NCBI GenBank assembly: GCA_965203315.1
Contig: OZ241857.1
Location: forward strand, 928,001-992,000
DNA length: 64,000 nt
Direction: 5' to 3'
DNA from: Nitrosopumilus sp.
GTDB lineage: Archaea > Thermoproteota > Nitrososphaeria > Nitrososphaerales > Nitrosopumilaceae
The notes below the pieces were generated by a model that ran no database searches, was not told where the DNA came from, and saw only the letters and a list, made by a program, of their open reading frames with translations. Shown in pieces: positions 11,799 to 27,898 of this stretch (positions within the stretch are counted from its first letter, which is position 1; each line of letters begins with the position of its first letter). Both the position numbers and the translations under genes were made by a program.

Positions 11799-11903
11799 AG
11801 CCCGATAGTCTAGCGGTCAAGTATATTATTAGATCAGTGATTCTGCCCTCTGGATCTCAAGAGTGGATAGGCAGAGACGGCAGTTCGAATCTGCCTCGGG
11901 CTA
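11799..11903 (+). tRNA. tRNA-Gln(CTG) with two introns (11821-11837 and 11855-11869)
   Basis: Acceptor stem AGCCCGA/TCGGGCT, anticodon stem CTGCC/GGCAG with CTG at 11850-11852, T-arm GGCAG-TTCGAAT-CTGCC; both inserts fold as bulge-helix-bulge. Confidence 0.9.
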
Positions 11904-11990
11904 CTGAAACTATCTAGACTCAAAACAGTATGCAAAATAGGTCGTAGTACACTGTTCGAATCTGCCTCGGGCTACTGAAACTATCTAGAC
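11883..11990. repeat. 37-bp perfect direct repeat around a 34-bp unique insert
   Basis: GTTCGAATCTGCCTCGGGCTACTGAAACTATCTAGAC at 11883-11919 and 11954-11990. Confidence 0.95.
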
Positions 11991-19700: not shown

Positions 19701-20553
19701 ACACCTCGTTGTCAAAGTATGTTGTGGTGTGATACTGTAATAGATCTACTAAATCTTGAACTATGAGTGGTGGAGTCCCTGCCTCTTTTGACTCTTTGAG
19801 TCGTTGGTTTACACGAATGATATCAACCATCTTGTGTGTCAGATCATCCTCTGAGCGGATACCGGTCTCGAGTATTATCGATGGTCTGACCGTTACAGGT
19901 GGGACAGGTAACACTTGAAGTATAAACCACTCTGGACGAGCCGTAGTGGGCTCATAGTTCAAGAGAGAGAGATCTTGATCTAGGATCTGTTCAAAGCGTT
20001 CTCGTATTGTAATTGGAAGTAGACGATGTTCGCCGATCTCGGTCTTTTCTATAAAGATGGTAGGCTTGATGAATATCAGATCATATTGAGCCTTGCCGCA
20101 GTGAGGACACTCTTTGGCCTTTTTGGCAGCATCAATGATCTCGTCAGGGATTTGTCTCTTTGATAGTACAGTGTATGCAGCATCTCTGGATTTGATGTCC
20201 TTGTATCTATCTAGATCTTCTTGAGGAACTTTGAGTCGTGCACAAGAACGACATGTAGACTGTAATAGTTTGTAGATATTGTCAATGAATGCAATGTGTA
20301 GTACTGGTTCGGCTAGTTCGATATGACCAAAGTGACCTGGGCAACGCGCAGCTGTATTTCCACATGTGAGACATTTTTGTCCTGGTTCTAGTGTACCTAG
20401 CCTGCCATCCATGAGTCCGCCTTGTACTGGAGCTCCATCCTCATCGTATGTCTCAGGTGCAGTGATCTCTGCTACCGAGTAACGTCGGATCTCATCTGGA
20501 GACCAGACAGAAAACTTGATGCCAGAGATGGACTTTACAGTTTGTAGCGACAT
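16768..20553 (-). CDS. rpoA: DNA-directed RNA polymerase subunit A (fused A'/A'')
   Basis: CPGHFGH, YNADFDGDEMN, GEPGTQMTLRTFH and VLARAAFE in one 1261-aa ORF. Confidence 0.98.
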   Translation of the reverse strand: MSLQTVKSISGIKFSVWSPDEIRRYSVAEITAPETYDEDGAPVQGGLMDGRLGTLEPGQKCLTCGNTAARCPGHFGHIELAEPVLHIAFIDNIYKLLQSTCRSCARLKVPQEDLDRYKDIKSRDAAYTVLSKRQIPDEIIDAAKKAKECPHCGKAQYDLIFIKPTIFIEKTEIGEHRLLPITIRERFEQILDQDLSLLNYEPTTARPEWFILQVLPVPPVTVRPSIILETGIRSEDDLTHKMVDIIRVNQRLKESKEAGTPPLIVQDLVDLLQYHTTTYFDNEVSGIPQAHHRSGRPLKTLTQRLKGKEGRFRGSLSGKRVDFSSRTVISPDPNLDLSEVGVPETVAMKLTIPEIVTEWNIKRMREFVINGPHTFPGVNYIVRPDGVKIRLDFVEDRSVIAETLEIGYHVERHLADGDIVMFNRQPSLHQMSIMAHYVKVLPGKTFRLHPSVCPPYNADFDGDEMNLHVPQSEEARAEAILLMRVQDQLISPRYGGPIIGALRDFVTGAYLLTKDGTVLSKLEFSNLAMLGGYTGTLPSPATKNKDGPAYTGKQLFSLFLPKDFNYTITSKWSKGTGGAQNDVVIKNGELISGVIDKTSIGAEEPESVLHRITKDYGNETGKKFLNSILIIVKQFITHYGFSYGYGDLEVPDKDKQKILDDIKDTYDTVSGFIREYDNGTLQAKPGMSPRETLEADILKELGMARDKAGSTANDSLDDNNAGKIMATTGARGSSLNVGQMAGALGQQSRRGDRLNEGFHNRVLSHFKEKDNSPDAHGFVKSNYREGLSTIEFFFHAMGGREGLVDTAVRTQQSGYMQRRLINALEHIRLEYDGTVRDPHGHIIQFLYGEDGIDVAKSDHGEAFNIHRLIESQKLIDSGDLATKEEIESLVKKYTKTFNPKLAETVRNALAKSKLSRDGVSAVCKKGLLLYNKAKVEPGQAVGIVTAQSLGEPGTQMTLRTFHFAGIKERNVTLGLPRLIELVDARKKPVTPTMDIHLKDEIKDSREDAINVAKNILQTKISDLKPHITTDSTNIKMAFDKRHLDQRSCTMADIEAALASNKKFKINILDNLLTLEFVEEYDPQTVITLRNKVKKTIVKGVSEVERIALVKRNQEWVIQTTGSNVKHALKVDGVDRKRVITNNVSEIVDTLGIEAARNALISELNTILRDQGLEVDNRYIMLVADLMCSRGSLMQIGRHGIAGKKDSVLARAAFEITVPTIAHAALGGETEELKGITENVIVGSNIPIGSGTVDLYMQVSKH

Positions 20554-23500
20554 TATATCTTCTCCTTTATCAAGAGTCTTGGTGCAACGTTGAGACTCTG
20601 CATCTCTTGTAGTAATAGTTTGAATGCATATGCAACAGATACAGATGATATCTTTGCTTTATCTCCACATACACGACATAGATACTTGCGTTGTTTAGCA
20701 TCATAGTATGCTACTAGACCACATCTCTCACATGCGTATACATCAGATTTGTCAGACTCGTCCAAGAGTCTGTCTTTTAATATCATCGAGGCACCGTACG
20801 CAATGAGACAGTCTCGCTCCATCTCACCAAATCGTAGACCACCACCACGTGCTCGTCCTTCAGTAGGTTGTTTTGTGAGCATCTGAACTTGACCACGTGC
20901 TCTAGCATGAATCTTGTCAGCTACCATATGATGCAGTTTCTGATAATATACCACACCTATAAAGACCTCTACTGGGAACGGTTTGCCGGTTCGACCATCA
21001 TACATCATCTCTTTACCAGAGTACTCGAATCCATGAGCATCCATGACTTTACGAACTATGTCCATCTTTTCACCAACAAATGCAGAACCATCGAATCTAG
21101 AGCCACGTAGAGCTGCTGCCTTACCACAAATAGACTCCATCATCATTCCAACCGTCATTCTAGATGGAAATGCGTGTGGGTTGATCAAGACATCAGGTGA
21201 GATGCCACTAGCTGTATACGGAAGATCTTCGTTCTTGGCCAACATACCCAAGACACCCTTTTGTCCGTGACGTGATGCAAATTTATCACCTATCTCTGGT
21301 ACGCGCATATCTCGAACTCGTATCTTGTACATCTTGCCACCCTCACTCGACTGGGTCATGACAACCGTATCAACCACACCAGATTCAGATGGTCTAACTC
21401 CTATCGAGGTGTCACGTCTGTATGGACCTCCAGTAGGCTCAAACTCGCGATACTCTTCCATAAATCGTGGCGGGCTAGTCTTGCCGATCAGAATGTCGCC
21501 ACCTTTGACGACTGCCTCTGCAGCTATTACGCCGTCCTCTTCTAATAGCCTATATGCTCGCTCGCCCTTGTATCCACGAATATTACTATCTGCGTTTGGT
21601 ATTACAAAGTCGTCACGAGCGCCACCAGGATATTGCTTGGACTCGGCATCATATATGCGAAAGAAGAATGTACGTCCAAGACCGCGATCAACTGCTGCTT
21701 GACTTAATACAATTGCGTCCTCGATATTGTATCCATCAAATGGCAGTACAGCAACCACACAGTTTTGTCCAGCAGGTCGATCCTCTAGTCCCAAGAGACC
21801 CATAGCTTTTGTGTTAACTATAGGAGTTTGAGGATACAGCATAAAGTGTTGTCTAACATAGGTACTGGTATTCATCATCGGTGTAGAGAATCCAAGACTC
21901 TGTTTGGCCATTGCAGACTCGTATGTATTTCGAGGAGACTGGTTGTGTTCAGGATATGGAATGATCGATGCGCCAGCACCAAGTATAGCGGGTGGGAATA
22001 CCTCAAGATGTGTATATCCACGTGTGACTTTGTCGTCCAGAGTCACATGACAGTTCTCTTCTTCGTTGGCATCGATCAACTCGAGTACACCCATTCGCAA
22101 GAGATCATGCCAAGCCAAGACCTTTTGTGATATCTTTACCAACATATCTGAACTGAGTAGAGATTTGTTGTCTTTGATCCGTATCAGAGGTCGGAGCACA
22201 CGACCAGCGTTGCAGTTTACGTATAGTCGCCTAGTAGACTCTTTCGTATCAGATTCATGAAAAGACACTCCCACATGTGCGTTAATCTTGGCGCTGCGTC
22301 TCTGATCACGTAGTCTCTCTGCAAGTTCTTGGCCATCTTGATGATAACCTATCAGACGACCGTCGACAAATATACGAGCTCCTTTCTCTTTGAGTTCATC
22401 TGTGAGTTTCTCTTCGTCAAGAAAGTAAACTGTTCCTAGATCGTACAGTTTCTCGACTATCTCTTCTGAGGGTACGTTCACAGATATAATACCAGACAAT
22501 GCAATGTTCTTTACTAGACCACAGTTGGATCCCTCTGGCGTCTCACTTGGACATATACGTCCAAAGTGAGTTGCGTGAAGGTCTCGTGCCTCAAAGTTTG
22601 GTTGAGTTCGACTTAGTGGTGATTGTATCCTTCTCAGGTGAGAGATTGTAGATAGATAGTTTGTACGATCCAATAGTTGTGTGACACCCACACGACCACG
22701 ACCCCAGTTACCAGTAGCTATTGCGTTGTTTAGTTTATCAGATATGATTCCTGGTCGTATTGCTGCAGATACAGCAGGCAGTCCCCGTTTTTGGCCTGTA
22801 CGTTCTAGTTGATACTTCATGTCTCGTACGAGGTTTCTAAATGCCGTTCTAAAGAGATCAGCCAACATCTGACCTGCAAACTTTATCACCTTATTTCCAT
22901 AGTGGTCTTTATCGTCAGGATCGATCCATCCTAGTTTCAGCTCTAACAGTTTACATGTGGCTTCGCCAAGAAACTGTGCCTTTACCTTTCGGTCCTCTGA
23001 ACGTTTACCTAGATGTGGCAACAGACTCCAGTCTAGGAGAGTCTCTGCACGTTTTATCTGAAACTCTTCCAACATTCCTGGTGCGATACGTTTGCTGATG
23101 TACACTAGAGCGTCTTTAGAGGTTGACACATCACTGGTCTTGTCGAAAGAGTCGTCAAGCTCATCTTGGATCTTTCCAACTAGAGAGACAGCAGATGCGA
23201 TATCTCGATCAGACTCTAGACCCAGAGCACGCATCAATGTAATAGCAGGTATAGCGACCGGCGAACCTGGAATGTTTGCTGTGATCAGTCCATCGTTCTT
23301 CATGACTAGTTCAAGTTTTGCGCGGTATCCAACTATCGAAGAGTATACCTTGGCCTTGTAGACGGGATTGTTGCTAACCATCTCTTTATCTACAATTATC
23401 TTGTTGTACGAGAGATCTTCCAATCCAACTATTACTCGTTCTGAACCGTTGATGATAAAGTAACCACCAGGATCATTTGGATCTTCACCGTGTTCGATTA

Positions 23501-23909
23501 ATTTTTGATTCGAAAAGTTGTTCAACATACATGCCTTTGATTTTATCATAACTGGAATATCGCCTATACGGACAGACTTGGACTCGAGTACCTTGCCATC
23601 CTCTATAACGCTTATATCCATATTTACTGGGGCAGAGTAGGAGACGTTTCTCAACCTAGCTTCAGCTGGAGTTATTTGGGTAATAGAACCGTCTAGTTCC
23701 ATCATTACCGGTTTACCAAGTTTTGCTTTACCTAGGTGAATCTTGTACGGATACTCGGCGTTCTCGATCTCTATCTGTCCTGCTTCATTTATGATATCTT
23801 GGAGACCTCGATCTAGAAACTCGTCAAAAGAGTTCAAGTGTTGGCGTGCTATGCCTTCACGTTTTAGGATATCTTGTATTATAGGCCATCGTACCGTAGG
23901 ATCAGACAT
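20553..23909 (-). CDS. rpoB: DNA-directed RNA polymerase subunit B
   Basis: GGYFIINGSERV, GDKFASRHGQKG, GGLRFGEMERD; start placed at ATG 23909 (MSDPTVRW). Confidence 0.98.
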   Translation of the reverse strand: MSDPTVRWPIIQDILKREGIARQHLNSFDEFLDRGLQDIINEAGQIEIENAEYPYKIHLGKAKLGKPVMMELDGSITQITPAEARLRNVSYSAPVNMDISVIEDGKVLESKSVRIGDIPVMIKSKACMLNNFSNQKLIEHGEDPNDPGGYFIINGSERVIVGLEDLSYNKIIVDKEMVSNNPVYKAKVYSSIVGYRAKLELVMKNDGLITANIPGSPVAIPAITLMRALGLESDRDIASAVSLVGKIQDELDDSFDKTSDVSTSKDALVYISKRIAPGMLEEFQIKRAETLLDWSLLPHLGKRSEDRKVKAQFLGEATCKLLELKLGWIDPDDKDHYGNKVIKFAGQMLADLFRTAFRNLVRDMKYQLERTGQKRGLPAVSAAIRPGIISDKLNNAIATGNWGRGRVGVTQLLDRTNYLSTISHLRRIQSPLSRTQPNFEARDLHATHFGRICPSETPEGSNCGLVKNIALSGIISVNVPSEEIVEKLYDLGTVYFLDEEKLTDELKEKGARIFVDGRLIGYHQDGQELAERLRDQRRSAKINAHVGVSFHESDTKESTRRLYVNCNAGRVLRPLIRIKDNKSLLSSDMLVKISQKVLAWHDLLRMGVLELIDANEEENCHVTLDDKVTRGYTHLEVFPPAILGAGASIIPYPEHNQSPRNTYESAMAKQSLGFSTPMMNTSTYVRQHFMLYPQTPIVNTKAMGLLGLEDRPAGQNCVVAVLPFDGYNIEDAIVLSQAAVDRGLGRTFFFRIYDAESKQYPGGARDDFVIPNADSNIRGYKGERAYRLLEEDGVIAAEAVVKGGDILIGKTSPPRFMEEYREFEPTGGPYRRDTSIGVRPSESGVVDTVVMTQSSEGGKMYKIRVRDMRVPEIGDKFASRHGQKGVLGMLAKNEDLPYTASGISPDVLINPHAFPSRMTVGMMMESICGKAAALRGSRFDGSAFVGEKMDIVRKVMDAHGFEYSGKEMMYDGRTGKPFPVEVFIGVVYYQKLHHMVADKIHARARGQVQMLTKQPTEGRARGGGLRFGEMERDCLIAYGASMILKDRLLDESDKSDVYACERCGLVAYYDAKQRKYLCRVCGDKAKISSVSVAYAFKLLLQEMQSLNVAPRLLIKEKI

Positions 23910-23914
23910 TATTT

Positions 23915-24021
23915 CTCCACCACATACCCATAGTAGCTCGTACCAGCTACCATTACTGGACCATACTTCAAGGCTTCTTCGGCTCCTCCACCACATACCT
24001 ATAGTAGTAGCTCGTACCAGC
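23915..24021. repeat. 36-bp direct repeat of the rpoH 3' end around a 38-bp unique insert
   Basis: CTCCACCACATACCTATAGTAGTAGCTCGTACCAGC (23986-24021) vs CTCCACCACATACCCATAGTAGCTCGTACCAGC (23915-23947; one substitution and a 3-bp deletion). Confidence 0.9.
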
Positions 24022-24231
24022 AGTAGGGCTATCTCTAGTGATCTTTATCATATCACCTGGTTTGACACCAAGTGTCACGATTGCTGGATCGGTACTAAAG
24101 ATTAATGGTAACTCTGTGGGCTTGCAGTTGTACTTTATCAAGATCTCTTCAGCCTCACCTTTGGTGATTATCTCGTGTTTGGGAACATAATAGTGATCTG
24201 GTACATATATCTGATCCTTCTTTATCGCCAT
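23968..24231 (-). CDS. rpoH: DNA-directed RNA polymerase subunit H (Rpo5)
   Basis: HYYVPKHEI, LPLIFSTDP, KPGDMIKITRDSPTAG...YYRYVV. Confidence 0.96.
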   Translation of the reverse strand: MAIKKDQIYVPDHYYVPKHEIITKGEAEEILIKYNCKPTELPLIFSTDPAIVTLGVKPGDMIKITRDSPTAGTSYYYRYVVEEPKKP

Positions 24232-24408: not shown

Positions 24409-25227
24409 ATGAAGACTCATCTATCGGTGTTTGCCATGACGGCAATTTTGATTGTAGGGATTGGTACTGCACCAGCATTTGGACAGATAGTAGCGGGAGC
24501 GATCGATGTCTCTACAGATAAAGAGTCGTATACAACAGGCGACACTATTGTTGTGAGTGGAACTATACGAGACGATCTTGGTACAGATATAACGATGAGG
24601 ATTATTGCACCTAACGGAAACGTTGTTGCTGTACAGCAGATCACACCAAAAGTAGACAAGACATATGAGACAGAGGTTGTGATAGGCGGTATCTTCAAGT
24701 TTACTGGAGAATACACTGTAAGGGTAACATATGCAAGTGAAAACCGTGTGGCCGCGTCTATGTTCAACGTAGAGGTAAAAGCCATGGAAGAACCAACTGT
24801 TCCTGTAGTCGATATTGAGACTTGGGAGATAGAAGGTACAGATGATCTCATACAGTATAGTATTACTGGTGGAACAGTGAAGAGTATTGTTCCTGATCCA
24901 GAATCAATGTCTCTGCGCATAATGATTGAAGCAACAGATGATGGAACGTTGACCATAACCATACCACGGACCATACTAGAAGCAGATGAAAAAGGAGTAT
25001 TCATCCTAGTTGATGATGAAGAGATGAACGACTTTGGTATAGATACAACTGATGAATATCGAAAGATCACAATCGACTTCCCACAAGGAACAGAGATGAT
25101 TGTGATAATCGGTACTTGGGTAATTCCTGAATTTGGTGTAATTGCAGCAATGATTCTTGCAATAGCAATCATATCTGTAATCGCAATCTCTGCAAGATCA
25201 CGACTTAGCATTATCCCACGATACTAA
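24409..25227 (+). CDS. PEFG-CTERM sorting domain surface protein
   Basis: Signal peptide, TDKESY..GD Ig-like start, C-terminal VIPEFG + transmembrane helix + ARSR basic tail. Confidence 0.9.
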   Translation: MKTHLSVFAMTAILIVGIGTAPAFGQIVAGAIDVSTDKESYTTGDTIVVSGTIRDDLGTDITMRIIAPNGNVVAVQQITPKVDKTYETEVVIGGIFKFTGEYTVRVTYASENRVAASMFNVEVKAMEEPTVPVVDIETWEIEGTDDLIQYSITGGTVKSIVPDPESMSLRIMIEATDDGTLTITIPRTILEADEKGVFILVDDEEMNDFGIDTTDEYRKITIDFPQGTEMIVIIGTWVIPEFGVIAAMILAIAIISVIAISARSRLSIIPRY

Positions 25228-25235
25228 GTTTCAAC

Positions 25236-25258
25236 TTTTTTTTCATTCTTTTTGTTTT
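25236..25258 (+). terminator. Oligo-T tract, putative archaeal terminator
   Basis: TTTTTTTTCATTCTTTTTGTTTT immediately after the stop codon of 24409-25227. Confidence 0.55.
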
Positions 25259-25447
25259 GGTACTATGCGTTCGTCACAACACATGTCAACTCAAGTATAT
25301 CGAATTGCCTAAAATCGAGATAGTACTAACTCATCTAGTTTGAGAGTGGGATCGTGATAGTTTTTGAAATTCGTATTGGATGGTTGCATCTGTCACATTG
25401 GGGTTTCAAAATGTACGCTATAATATGTAACATAGAATTTGGCAAGA

Positions 25448-25825
25448 TCACAGCTTTTCGCGAAGGGTCTTGTCAATGCTTTGAAGAGTTATTGCAATTG
25501 TATCTAATTTGTTATCAATTGTATCTAATTTGTTATCAATAGATTCAAGCTTGTCATCAATTGTGTCTAGTTTGTTGTCAACAGATCCAAGCTTGTCCAA
25601 GATCATTCTATTAGTGACTTTGAGATCGTCTATGCCATGGTATATCTTTTCTGAAATCTGTTTTGTGGCATACATCATATACAATCCTACACTACCACTA
25701 CTCATAAGTGCTACCCCTGTAGCTGTGAGATTAAAATCAAATGGCGATGTTTCAAACAATTCCAGAGATGCCATTGTAGCACCTACAACAAACAAGATAG
25801 ACAGACCAACTCGTTTGACAATCAA
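25448..25825 (-). CDS. Membrane-anchored heptad-repeat (coiled-coil) hypothetical protein
   Basis: Two hydrophobic segments followed by DNKLDTI-type repeats encoded by 21-bp tandem units (about 25495-25597). Confidence 0.65.
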   Translation of the reverse strand: MIVKRVGLSILFVVGATMASLELFETSPFDFNLTATGVALMSSGSVGLYMMYATKQISEKIYHGIDDLKVTNRMILDKLGSVDNKLDTIDDKLESIDNKLDTIDNKLDTIAITLQSIDKTLREKL

Positions 25826-26012
25826 TACAATTCACATTCAAGCAACTTTCCATACTCCGAGACTGACTTTAAAAGCTTTGGTTATCAGCGATATCTAGAT
25901 CGAATTAAATATTTAGTAATATGCATATCGATATGCTCGCTGCAGAGTAACGTGTAATTGCTGTAATCAATAATTTTAGCATCATGTTAGAGTCGGTACT
26001 AGTTGTATCAGA

Positions 26013-26130
26013 GGATCTTTACGGTTTACTTTGGATGGAATTGTTACGTAAAAAACACTACAAGATTCTATAAGAGAAAATTAGGAAAAAAGCCTTGCGA
26101 AAAGTCATCCCATGTAAATCAAAGAGATCC
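26013..26130 (-). mobile_element. MITE, GGATC-ended family, copy 3
   Basis: GGATCTTTACGGTTTAC...GTAAATCAAAGAGATCC. Confidence 0.8.
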
Positions 26131-26198
26131 GTATAGCGAAATTGCAGAATCGCCAAAAAATATACACACATAAATAACAATAATCTAGCACAAACAGA

Positions 26199-27038
26199 AT
26201 GAACGTCTGGTCGATCGTAGCAATGTTGGTTGCTATATCACTGATCTCAGTAGGGGTAGTTCAGCAGACCACCTTTGCTCAAGAAGCTGGAATGGCTATG
26301 CGAGCCACATCTGATGAAGGATCAGATACCATCTCAATAATGGGCAAGACGTTCTTGAGAACTACAGACATTGCATTCAAAGTCACAGCGCCTAATGGTG
26401 TCAATGTTGTAGAAATTGGACAAGTATCTCCAGATACAAACGGAGAGTTTGCTCTAGATATCAAGACCAATTTGTGGAAACAGTCTGGCTATTATACAGT
26501 TCTCGCAAGGCAGGACAATTCTGCATTTCATACTCTAAAACTAGAAGTCGAAGTGATCGATGGCATCACGAGACAGACAGATGAGCGAGCAACCAATCTA
26601 TCTACAGATATCTTTGCAGACGCAGACATACTAGAGGAGATGGGATTAGAACTCTATCCGATAATGGTAGAGGTTGGAACTACAGAGTTTGAGGTTATGG
26701 GGAGAACTGACAGGGTCGAACAAGATGTAACAATCATAATTACATCACCAGGATTTGGAAATAGAGTCACAGCTGCTCAAGTTGTCCCAGATCAAGATGG
26801 AGAGTTTGTTGCAAACATATCTGTAAAAGGACCATTATGGAAAGAGGATGGCAACTATACGGTAACTGCACAACAGGGCTCAGACCCAGAGTATACTGAC
26901 TCGACTCAGATAGAGATACTAGATGGCGTAATAGTTCCAGAGTTTGGTGCCATTGCAATGCTGATACTAGCTGTTGCAATCATCTCGATGATTATAGTAT
27001 CCGCAAGATCTAGACTTGGTATCATTCCAAAATACTAG
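26199..27038 (+). CDS. PEFG-CTERM sorting domain surface protein (two Ig-like repeats)
   Basis: Signal peptide, two QV.PD..GEF...W...G.YTV repeats, IVPEFG + TM + ARSR. Confidence 0.9.
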   Translation: MNVWSIVAMLVAISLISVGVVQQTTFAQEAGMAMRATSDEGSDTISIMGKTFLRTTDIAFKVTAPNGVNVVEIGQVSPDTNGEFALDIKTNLWKQSGYYTVLARQDNSAFHTLKLEVEVIDGITRQTDERATNLSTDIFADADILEEMGLELYPIMVEVGTTEFEVMGRTDRVEQDVTIIITSPGFGNRVTAAQVVPDQDGEFVANISVKGPLWKEDGNYTVTAQQGSDPEYTDSTQIEILDGVIVPEFGAIAMLILAVAIISMIIVSARSRLGIIPKY

Positions 27039-27091
27039 ATAATTTTTAGAAAGGGAAACATAAAAAGATAGACTAGTCATTATTGCAGTAT

Positions 27092-27898
27092 ATGAAACTT
27101 GGAATAATCTGTATGATACTAGCAGTATCAGTAACAGTCGCATCAGCACAAGAGTCGACAGTAACGATAGATACTAATACGGATACTTATCTAAGAGGCG
27201 ATACGATCATTGTATTTGGAAATGTCTCAACGATCTTGCAAGGAACAGCTGTTGTGATTCAGATCAGTCATCAGGGCGCAATAATCGATGTTGCGCAGGT
27301 TGATGTGGCAGATGTTGGTTCCTTCTTTAAGACGTTCATTGCAGGTTGTTTAGAGTGTCCAAACGATAAATGGGTAAATGTTGGTACATATGATATCAAA
27401 GCATCATATGGAGAAGGAAATGTTGTAGAGACACAGATAGAGTACATCAAAGAGATCCCAATAATAGAGAATAGTGACAATATTGAAGTAGATGCAGGCA
27501 GTCATGGAACATTCGATGTTGGATACGAGATGACTGGAGGAGATGTAATAGCTATCAGAGTCGATATGGATATTTTAGGACTGGTAGTAGACATAGATGC
27601 AAAAGAGTCTGGAAGTGTAACCTTGGAGATGCCAAGAGACTATATCGGCGCACAAGAGGGCGATGATGATATTGACTTTATTGTACTGATCGACGACAAT
27701 CCAATAGATCATATAGAAAGTGAAGGTGTCAACACTAGAAAGGTTACGATGGATACGATACCCGGCAACTCACAGATCAAGATAATCGGCACATATGTGG
27801 TACCAGAGTTTGGAACTATACTGTTCATTATGGTAGTTGCTATTGGCAGTTTGGTTGCTATGCGATATCTGCCTATGCAAAAGAGTATTTCTCTTTGA
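27092..27898 (+). CDS. PEFG-CTERM sorting domain surface protein
   Basis: Signal peptide MKLGII, VVPEFG + TM; 3' end overlaps the iscS stop region. Confidence 0.88.
   Translation: MKLGIICMILAVSVTVASAQESTVTIDTNTDTYLRGDTIIVFGNVSTILQGTAVVIQISHQGAIIDVAQVDVADVGSFFKTFIAGCLECPNDKWVNVGTYDIKASYGEGNVVETQIEYIKEIPIIENSDNIEVDAGSHGTFDVGYEMTGGDVIAIRVDMDILGLVVDIDAKESGSVTLEMPRDYIGAQEGDDDIDFIVLIDDNPIDHIESEGVNTRKVTMDTIPGNSQIKIIGTYVVPEFGTILFIMVVAIGSLVAMRYLPMQKSISL

Follow-up and report, generated by a model that had tools for sequence, protein, structure and literature searches.

The junction between rpoH and rpoB in this Nitrosopumilus genome raises the question of how the end of a gene for an essential RNA polymerase subunit came to stand twice on the chromosome, around a short stretch of DNA that belongs to neither copy, and of what this has done to the two genes. 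The window under study, i.e., the whole 64,000-nt stretch of DNA that was analyzed, covers C1:928001-992000, and both genes are read from its minus strand. The original prediction had suggested a fixed-ruler mechanism, such as a Cas1-Cas2-like integrase, that inserts short fragments and duplicates their target. The present analysis leads in the same direction, as the rpoH unit very probably arose when the type I-B adaptation complex of this genome, Cas1-Cas2 with Cas4, integrated a spacer off target.

Anatomy of the Duplicated rpoH End

The rpoH gene, which encodes RNA polymerase subunit H (Rpo5), is an ORF of 87 codons at 23968..24231 on the minus strand, whose protein is 76-83% identical to RpoH from same-genus relatives (tblastn), and its C-terminus here reads ...AGTSYYYRYVVEEPKKP, followed by the stop codon. 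Three segments of the minus strand make up the unit: an upstream copy of the target duplication (23986..24021; 36 nt, possibly 37), which still encodes the end of rpoH (AGTSYYYRYVVE), a spacer-sized insert (23948..23985; 38 nt, or 37 if the duplication counts 37), and a downstream relic copy (23915..23947; 33 nt), which is no longer part of rpoH. The predicted duplication of the last 36 bp of rpoH around a unique 38-bp insert was indeed seen, at 24021-23986 and 23947-23915. The 38-nt insert is unique in the genome, and the 141-nt stretch spanning the unit occurs there a single time. The outer ends of the two copies lie exactly at 23915 and 24021. The boundary of the unit is ambiguous by 1 nt (36 identical nucleotides, with an ambiguous 37th position), and the unit can be read as 36+38 or as 37+37, with a period of 74. 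On contig coordinates, it is found at C1:951915.

The relic copy differs from the upstream copy by one substitution (R to G) and by a 3-nt deletion that removed one codon; a repeat search splits the pair into two blocks, spaced by 71 and 74, one of 22 nt at 95% identity and the other of 17 nt at 100%. It translates as AGTSYYGYVVEK, followed by a stop codon, and its TAA (23911-23909) overlaps the rpoB ATG (23909-23907). The resulting TAATG (23907..23911, minus strand), which resembles the junctions found in relatives, can be read as the ancestral stop/start overlap. The decayed downstream copy of the original prediction, with one substitution, a 3-nt deletion and TAATG at rpoB, was thus recovered in every detail. 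The upstream copy has kept the motif YYRYVVE, which is found in 25 of the 26 relatives' loci described below, whereas the relic is one codon shorter and carries G in place of R; the downstream copy is therefore the decaying one. Because its two copies differ and its source is gone, the rpoH unit is also older than the three units of the genome whose duplications are perfect, in line with the label "older" that it had been given.

Consequences for rpoH and rpoB

The last five codons of rpoH (EPKKP) and its TGA stop (23970-23968) derive from the insert, as had been claimed, and RpoH is longer by four residues. The rpoB gene (20553..23909 on the minus strand in the ORF listing, with homologues that start at an MSDP-type position) now begins 58 nt downstream of the rpoH stop, which it formerly overlapped. 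Its frame is open upstream, over 29 codons, to an in-frame ATG at 23996, inside the end of rpoH. A candidate mini-ORF of 14 codons (MVAGTSYYGYVVEK and a stop codon; 23909..23953, minus strand) can also be read from the sequence, with its ATG in the insert and its end at the TAATG overlap. Through this frame, termination-reinitiation at rpoB might have been maintained, but it could easily be due to chance. The change in the tail of RpoH and the broken stop/start overlap are apparently harmless.

Beside the RNA polymerase genes, at 24409-27898 on the plus strand of the window, three neighboring ORFs of 271-279 residues have signal-peptide-like starts and share a VIPEFG/VVPEFG membrane-anchor tail, forming a cluster of the PEFG-CTERM type.

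The Same Junction in Relatives

The junction DNA was searched in 40 relatives, from which 26 loci (L002-L027) were then extracted. In most same-genus genomes, the match came as two pieces that overlapped by about 20 nt in the subject and left about 50 nt of the query unpartnered. In all 26 loci the rpoH-rpoB junction is single-copy and abuts rpoB, with an rpoH end that reads ...VVE plus one residue in 25 of them and VVE in the other. In the 23 same-genus loci, the rpoH stop overlaps the rpoB start or lies within a few bases of it. This alignment, which the original prediction had proposed as a check, bears out the ancestral coupling that it had assumed. As the junction is single-copy in all of the relatives' loci, the 74-bp addition is specific to the present genome. 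Contigs from four public runs (two studies, at least one of which is possibly the assembly's own source) all carried the rpoH unit unchanged, and in these same four runs no contig joined across an empty rpoH-rpoB site.

Origin of the rpoH Insert

The search for a source of the 38-bp insert, also called for at the outset, ended negatively in every collection covered. The best ungapped match in the whole genome was 24/38, equal to that of shuffled queries (23-26); two exact 24-mers of the insert had no match in viral_contigs, where exact words would miss a diverged source; and a 35-mer with at most 3 mismatches had no match in 150 genomes of the genus. The source may be foreign, lost, or diverged. 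As none was found, the case for this unit rests on its geometry and on its six sister units.

A more local origin had been raised in the original prediction itself, namely that the insert might be a decayed copy of neighboring sequence. Such a structure would result from local tandem duplication by replication slippage, of which closely spaced direct repeats are the usual product, and the indel that distinguishes the two rpoH copies would suit this explanation. However, the insert is no closer to its 400-nt flanks (both strands) or to the duplicated block than shuffled versions of itself (local score of 9, vs. a shuffled mean of 9.6). Slippage, moreover, yields A-x-A-x and not A-x-A with a foreign x, and it leaves unexplained six other units of the genome, built on the same 37-nt ruler, with inserts from distant loci. 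We therefore consider slippage extremely improbable.

Seven Units of One Geometry

The genome was compared with itself at offsets of 30-200, and isolated two-copy direct repeats were kept and realigned with gaps. This gapped-duplication scan, which had likewise been recommended, returned 39 isolated pairs with at least 26 matched nucleotides, in eight of which a repeat of 30-42 nt recurs at a period of 70-76. The other 164 offsets gave only 12 pairs with a repeat of 30-42 nt, i.e., an approximately 16-fold excess per offset at 70-76. Seven of the eight pairs are true units, the eighth being a collagen-like coding repeat, and the genome holds at least seven such scars.

The duplication is perfect (37/37) in three units: C1:939883 (window position 11883), with an insert of 34 nt, C1:1392035, with 36 nt, and C1:1929632, with 35 nt. 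It is 37 nt with one difference at C1:807540 (insert of 35 nt), 36-37 nt with one to two differences at C1:750910 (38 nt), and 37 nt with five differences at C5:232655 (38 nt). The rpoH unit, C1:951915, completes the set with its 36-nt duplication, its relic altered by one substitution and a 3-nt deletion, and its insert of 37-38 nt. None of the seven units has gained a second spacer and thereby turned into an array, and the seven inserts are mutually unrelated in sequence.

The unit at 11883 is the second one in the window (11883..11990, plus strand), with copies at 11883-11919 and 11954-11990 and an insert at 11920-11953. Dimensions of 37+34 had been given for this tRNA site, in agreement with the perfect 37-nt duplication and 34-nt insert observed. 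In its first copy lie the final 21 nt of a tRNA with an intron (11799-11903, plus strand), and in its second copy the 3' end of a convergent ORF, the N-terminus of which looks like that of ribosomal protein S7. The tRNA scores 40.7 bits with Rfam and is missed by ARAGORN under default settings; regarding its isotype, the intron mode of ARAGORN proposes a doubtful Ser(aga) model, and an earlier note had read Gln. Empty sites were found here too: the site of this tRNA is single-copy in 10 of the 10 relatives' loci examined, and at the tRNA-Gly site of another unit (see below) the two halves of the query align, in five relatives, to subject stretches whose overlap measures 34-36 nt.

Several other repeats were set aside. 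Two regions with a period of about 72 were rejected as integration units, C1:211904-213258 being a collagen-like Gly-X-Y coding repeat and C5:337209-337673 a lysine-rich coding tandem repeat. Five weaker candidates, with shorter or indel-bearing repeats and no source for an insert, were not counted: C1:1447290-1447385 (period 70), C1:558528-558644 and C1:327409-327516 (period 80), C5:62814-62921 (period 81), and C1:1283082-1283164 (period 61). These five, whose periods range from 61 to 81, could be remnants of earlier units that have decayed, or could be unrelated. One of them, C1:327409-327516, adjoins the 3' end of a tRNA-Asn.

The Resident Type I-B System and Its Array

A type I-B cas operon is located on the same chromosome, approximately 57 kb from the rpoH unit and 17 kb beyond the end of the window. 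It comprises Cas7 (Csh2-like), Cas5, Cas3, Cas6b (Pfam), Cas1, Cas2, and Cas4, the last three all scoring above the NCBIfam cut-offs, as well as a protein of 580 residues that has no family match and probably occupies the position expected for Cas8b. Cas1 (C1:1009365-1010234; 230 bits) contains no internal stops and is the sole Cas1 match in the genome. The operon has a type I-B layout and is intact. An IS5 family transposase ORF (weak NCBIfam match, 47 bits) is found at C1:999507-1000670 on the minus strand, about 2.4 kb upstream of the operon.

The CRISPR array lies directly downstream of the cas operon and consists of 70 repeats of 37 nt, 69 of them identical and the last one with a single change. 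Its 69 spacers measure 34-39 nt (14 of 34 nt, 25 of 35, 15 of 36, 8 of 37, 5 of 38, and 2 of 39), for a period of 71-76. The rpoH unit (36-37 plus 37-38, period 74) shares this geometry, and its insert of 37-38 nt falls inside the spacer range. The fixed ruler of the original prediction thus finds a counterpart in the genome, where a single Cas1 within an intact operon accompanies an array of 37-nt repeats and 34-39-nt spacers. The rpoH duplication was not retained as a functional CRISPR array, as it resembles the repeat at 16 of 37 positions, counts two copies, and stands inside the RNA polymerase operon. It was not retained as a casposon either, the only Cas1 being that of the operon, the insert measuring 38 nt and the duplication 36-37 nt.

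All array spacers and all unit inserts were compared with the genome by BLAST, and none of the 69 spacers matched the chromosome over more than 17 nt. Five spacers matched contig C7 over 30-36 nt, with TTA or TTG directly 5' of the match in all five cases. This contig (53,622 nt; L060-L062) carries genes for a terminase large subunit, an MCM helicase, a DNA methylase, and a PD-(D/E)XK nuclease, and looks like a virus from its gene content, so that a targeted, virus-like contig has been assembled alongside its immune host. Two further features of this contig may be mentioned: several more spacers, among them the two closest to the leader, match both strands of its region at about 2950-2975, and one of its ORFs is very long, with approximately 3,300 codons from the first start codon.

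Sources of the Other Six Inserts

While no source was found for the rpoH insert, each of the other six has a second full-length match, with a similarity that ends exactly at the borders of the insert; five of these matches are on the chromosome and one is on contig C7. The insert of C1:1392035 is identical to its source (36/36, C1:424594-424629). That of C1:807540 matches at 34/35 positions within a three-copy gene family (C1:1293199-1293233), that of C1:939883 at 32/34 inside an ORF that looks thiolase-like (C1:1158254-1158287), that of C1:1929632 at 32/35 (C1:1258821-1258855), that of C1:750910 at 33/38 (C1:395419-395456), and that of C5:232655 at approximately 32/38, on contig C7. Three of the five chromosomal sources lie inside ORFs. 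In two units with a perfect duplication, the inserts differ from their sources at 2-3 positions, which is somewhat more than would be expected if both kinds of sequence were of the same age. The finding that six of the seven inserts are copies of DNA from elsewhere is in line with what a spacer-integrating enzyme would leave.

The TTR PAM of the array was found directly beside none of the five chromosomal sources, on either strand, and two of these sources have a TTG at a distance of 2-3 nt. The stray units therefore differ from canonical, PAM-selected acquisition, and would document uptake without a PAM, for the most part of self DNA. In a real array, spacers of this kind would be filtered out or lethal. 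Three of the five sources (1158254, 1258821, and 1293199) are grouped around the point, at about 1.26 Mb, where the cumulative GC skew of C1 peaks. The skew signal is weak, and this clustering might reflect a replication-related hot spot for self acquisition, or chance.

Inserts that are mostly copies of the own genome and that lack a PAM could also suggest an undescribed process independent of Cas proteins, which would add about 72 nt in the form of a short self copy with a compensating duplication of the target. The two lengths are not seen to compensate each other, however: the duplication is fixed at 36-37 nt without any trade-off with insert length (34-38 nt; periods of 71-75). Both lengths, moreover, equal those of the resident array, the adaptation genes of which are intact, and some duplication ends appear similar to the termini of the CRISPR repeat. 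We consider such a process very unlikely.

Target Sites and Their Ends

Of the seven units, five sit on the 3' end of a gene or tRNA; a sixth runs across the 5' end of an ORF, and the seventh lies in frame inside an ORF. Three of the five are placed between convergent ends, i.e., those of two ORFs, of the in-window tRNA and the S7-like ORF, and of a tRNA-Gly(ccc) and an ORF, and at all three sites the duplication leaves each partner with an intact end of its own. The two other 3'-end units are found at the rpoH stop/rpoB start and at the 3' end of a single ORF on C5. The unit inside an ORF (C1:1929632-1929740, L063) adds 72 nt, or 24 codons in frame, at about residues 105-141 of an ORF of 380 residues, the homologues of which have 323-343 residues and in which the inserted segment, a variable linker, is absent or unaligned. 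The view that such insertions survive at gene ends was thus upheld, with five units at a 3' end, a sixth at a 5' end, and the seventh in frame in a variable linker.

The location of these targets brings to mind another origin, in which a virus or plasmid with a replacement copy of the rpoH end would have been inserted at the rpoH 3' end by an integrase and later deleted down to 38 nt, or, as a variant, in which the unit would be the footprint of another transposon. Gene and tRNA 3' ends are indeed classic attachment sites, and two of the seven units touch tRNA 3' ends. Against this, the duplication length is the same (36-37 nt) at seven unrelated targets and the inserts all measure 34-38 nt, a uniform geometry that seven independent deletions of large elements would not give. 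The inserts share no sequence; five of them are exact-length chromosomal copies, three from inside ORFs, and the only Cas1 match of the genome sits in the cas operon. An integrase or transposon remnant is accordingly judged highly unlikely. As an integrase attachment-site duplication, the rpoH unit was also rejected on the 38 nt that separate its copies and on the seven unrelated inserts.

The ends of the targets, which the original prediction had proposed to compare, showed a non-random composition: G stands at the 5' end on at least one strand in 7/7, GT in 5/7, and 3/7 come close to a repeat terminus. The count of 7/7 for G (background of 0.35, p ~6e-4) includes a boundary of 36 nt at C1:1929632 that was chosen after seeing the data, and becomes 6/7 if 37 nt are taken there. 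For GT, p is ~4e-4, and the three duplications near a terminus match an 8-nt repeat terminus at 6 or more positions (background of 0.022). Over the whole repeat, three of the seven targets share 18/37 positions (p ~0.009 each), and the rpoH target, with its 5' G on the coding strand, shares 16/37 (p 0.05). Overall likeness to the repeat is absent in three of the seven targets (6-9 of 37 positions).

Proposed Mechanism

What points to Cas1-Cas2 is the ruler, together with the lengths of the inserts, their exact-length copying, the preference at the ends, and the presence of an intact system; both the catalytic role of Cas1-Cas2 and the order of the steps are inferred. From a mechanistic standpoint, Cas1-Cas2 would attach a prespacer of about 37 nt by both of its 3' ends, one to each strand of the chromosome, at points 36-37 bp apart, the spacing that it normally uses across the 37-nt CRISPR repeat. 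Gap repair by the host would then duplicate the 36-37 bp between the joining points. At the present locus, the target would have been the last 12 codons of rpoH, just upstream of the final codon and of the stop that overlapped the rpoB start. The upstream copy would have stayed the coding end of rpoH and read into the spacer, up to EPKKP and its stop, and the downstream copy would have kept TAATG with rpoB, lost its coding role, and decayed through the R to G change and the deletion of a codon.

A broader reading can be proposed, which we hold only tentatively and rate a little below an even chance: the native module would possess a second, unchecked channel, integrating PAM-unchecked and mostly self prespacers at G(T) ends on a 37-bp ruler. 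The scars would then constitute a neutral record of unfiltered acquisition in which self DNA predominates, such DNA being erased from the real array by autoimmunity. They would also feed new coding sequence, as in the RpoH tail and the 24-codon insertion, and potential new CRISPR loci.

Relation to Known Systems and Significance

Full-site integration by Cas1-Cas2 is established at CRISPR repeats. Casposons, kilobase-sized elements bounded by terminal inverted repeats, generate duplications of about 14-15 bp and often lie at tRNA or gene 3' ends. The present units share with them a Cas1-family integrase that would make target duplications, and differ in size, in duplication length, and in the single, operon-linked Cas1. 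To our knowledge, off-target integration has mainly been shown with over-expressed Escherichia coli Cas1-Cas2 and in vitro, and few clean natural cases are on record. Nivala, Shipman and Church (Nat Microbiol 2018; 3:310) reportedly observed off-target Cas1-Cas2 integration in E. coli in vivo, giving "neo-CRISPR" units, and are said to have pointed to putative natural cases in Yersinia pestis and Sulfolobus islandicus.

That work is cited in three later articles (PMC6698737, PMC7054753, PMC9456107). Like the neo-CRISPR units, the units described here combine a spacer-sized insert, a duplication of the length of the resident repeat, and sites outside arrays, some of which appear to resemble repeat ends. 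Unlike them, they belong to a native archaeal type I-B system that is not over-expressed, with a 37-nt ruler and seven scars in one genome; five of the inserts are self-derived without a PAM, and coding sequence has been altered. Pyrococcus furiosus Cas1-Cas2 integrates in vitro into non-CRISPR DNA that shares repeat features, and the spacing of its joining sites tracks repeat length (PMC6698737). Those experiments used plasmids in vitro, whereas fixed chromosomal scars are observed here, in a different lineage and subtype. A Sulfolobus islandicus study proposes that Cas1 binds stem-loops genome-wide and needs restraint outside arrays (PMC9456107). As for canonical acquisition, a study of the Haloarcula hispanica type I-B system deals with repeat-duplication rulers (PMC4872114). 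The stray units resemble canonical type I-B acquisition in that staggered integration would duplicate the target and in that insert lengths are those of the spacers of the own array. They depart from it in lacking a leader and in having targets other than CRISPR repeats, and their sources lack the TTR that accompanies 5/5 virus-matched spacers.

The kind of event is thus already known, and the present case is an unusually clean one. In a search of full-text literature, with most subscription journals outside its scope, no description of natural multi-site off-target integration in archaea was found. The present case contributes a native archaeal type I-B system for which the array, the intact genes, seven scars, the empty sites, and six sources can be followed in one genome, together with strays that are PAM-less, mostly self-derived, and able to alter what genes encode, an essential RNA polymerase subunit among them. 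Such scars offer direct estimates of three quantities that are difficult to obtain at the bench, namely of the intrinsic ruler (36-37 bp, even without repeat motifs), of the minimal requirement of the target (a 5' G or GT at the joining site), and of unselected uptake by the integrase (mostly self DNA without a PAM). CRISPR adaptation can in this way act as a gene-remodeling mutagen. The A-x-A scan, in which A is set to the repeat length of the genome, is applicable to any CRISPR-bearing genome.

Within the genus, Cas1 family matches were found in 56 of 151 genomes. Some of these genomes contain 3-6 copies of Cas1, in open frames of approximately 410-420 residues, and others have frames of 557-578 residues, which suggests casposons in the former case and fusions in the latter.
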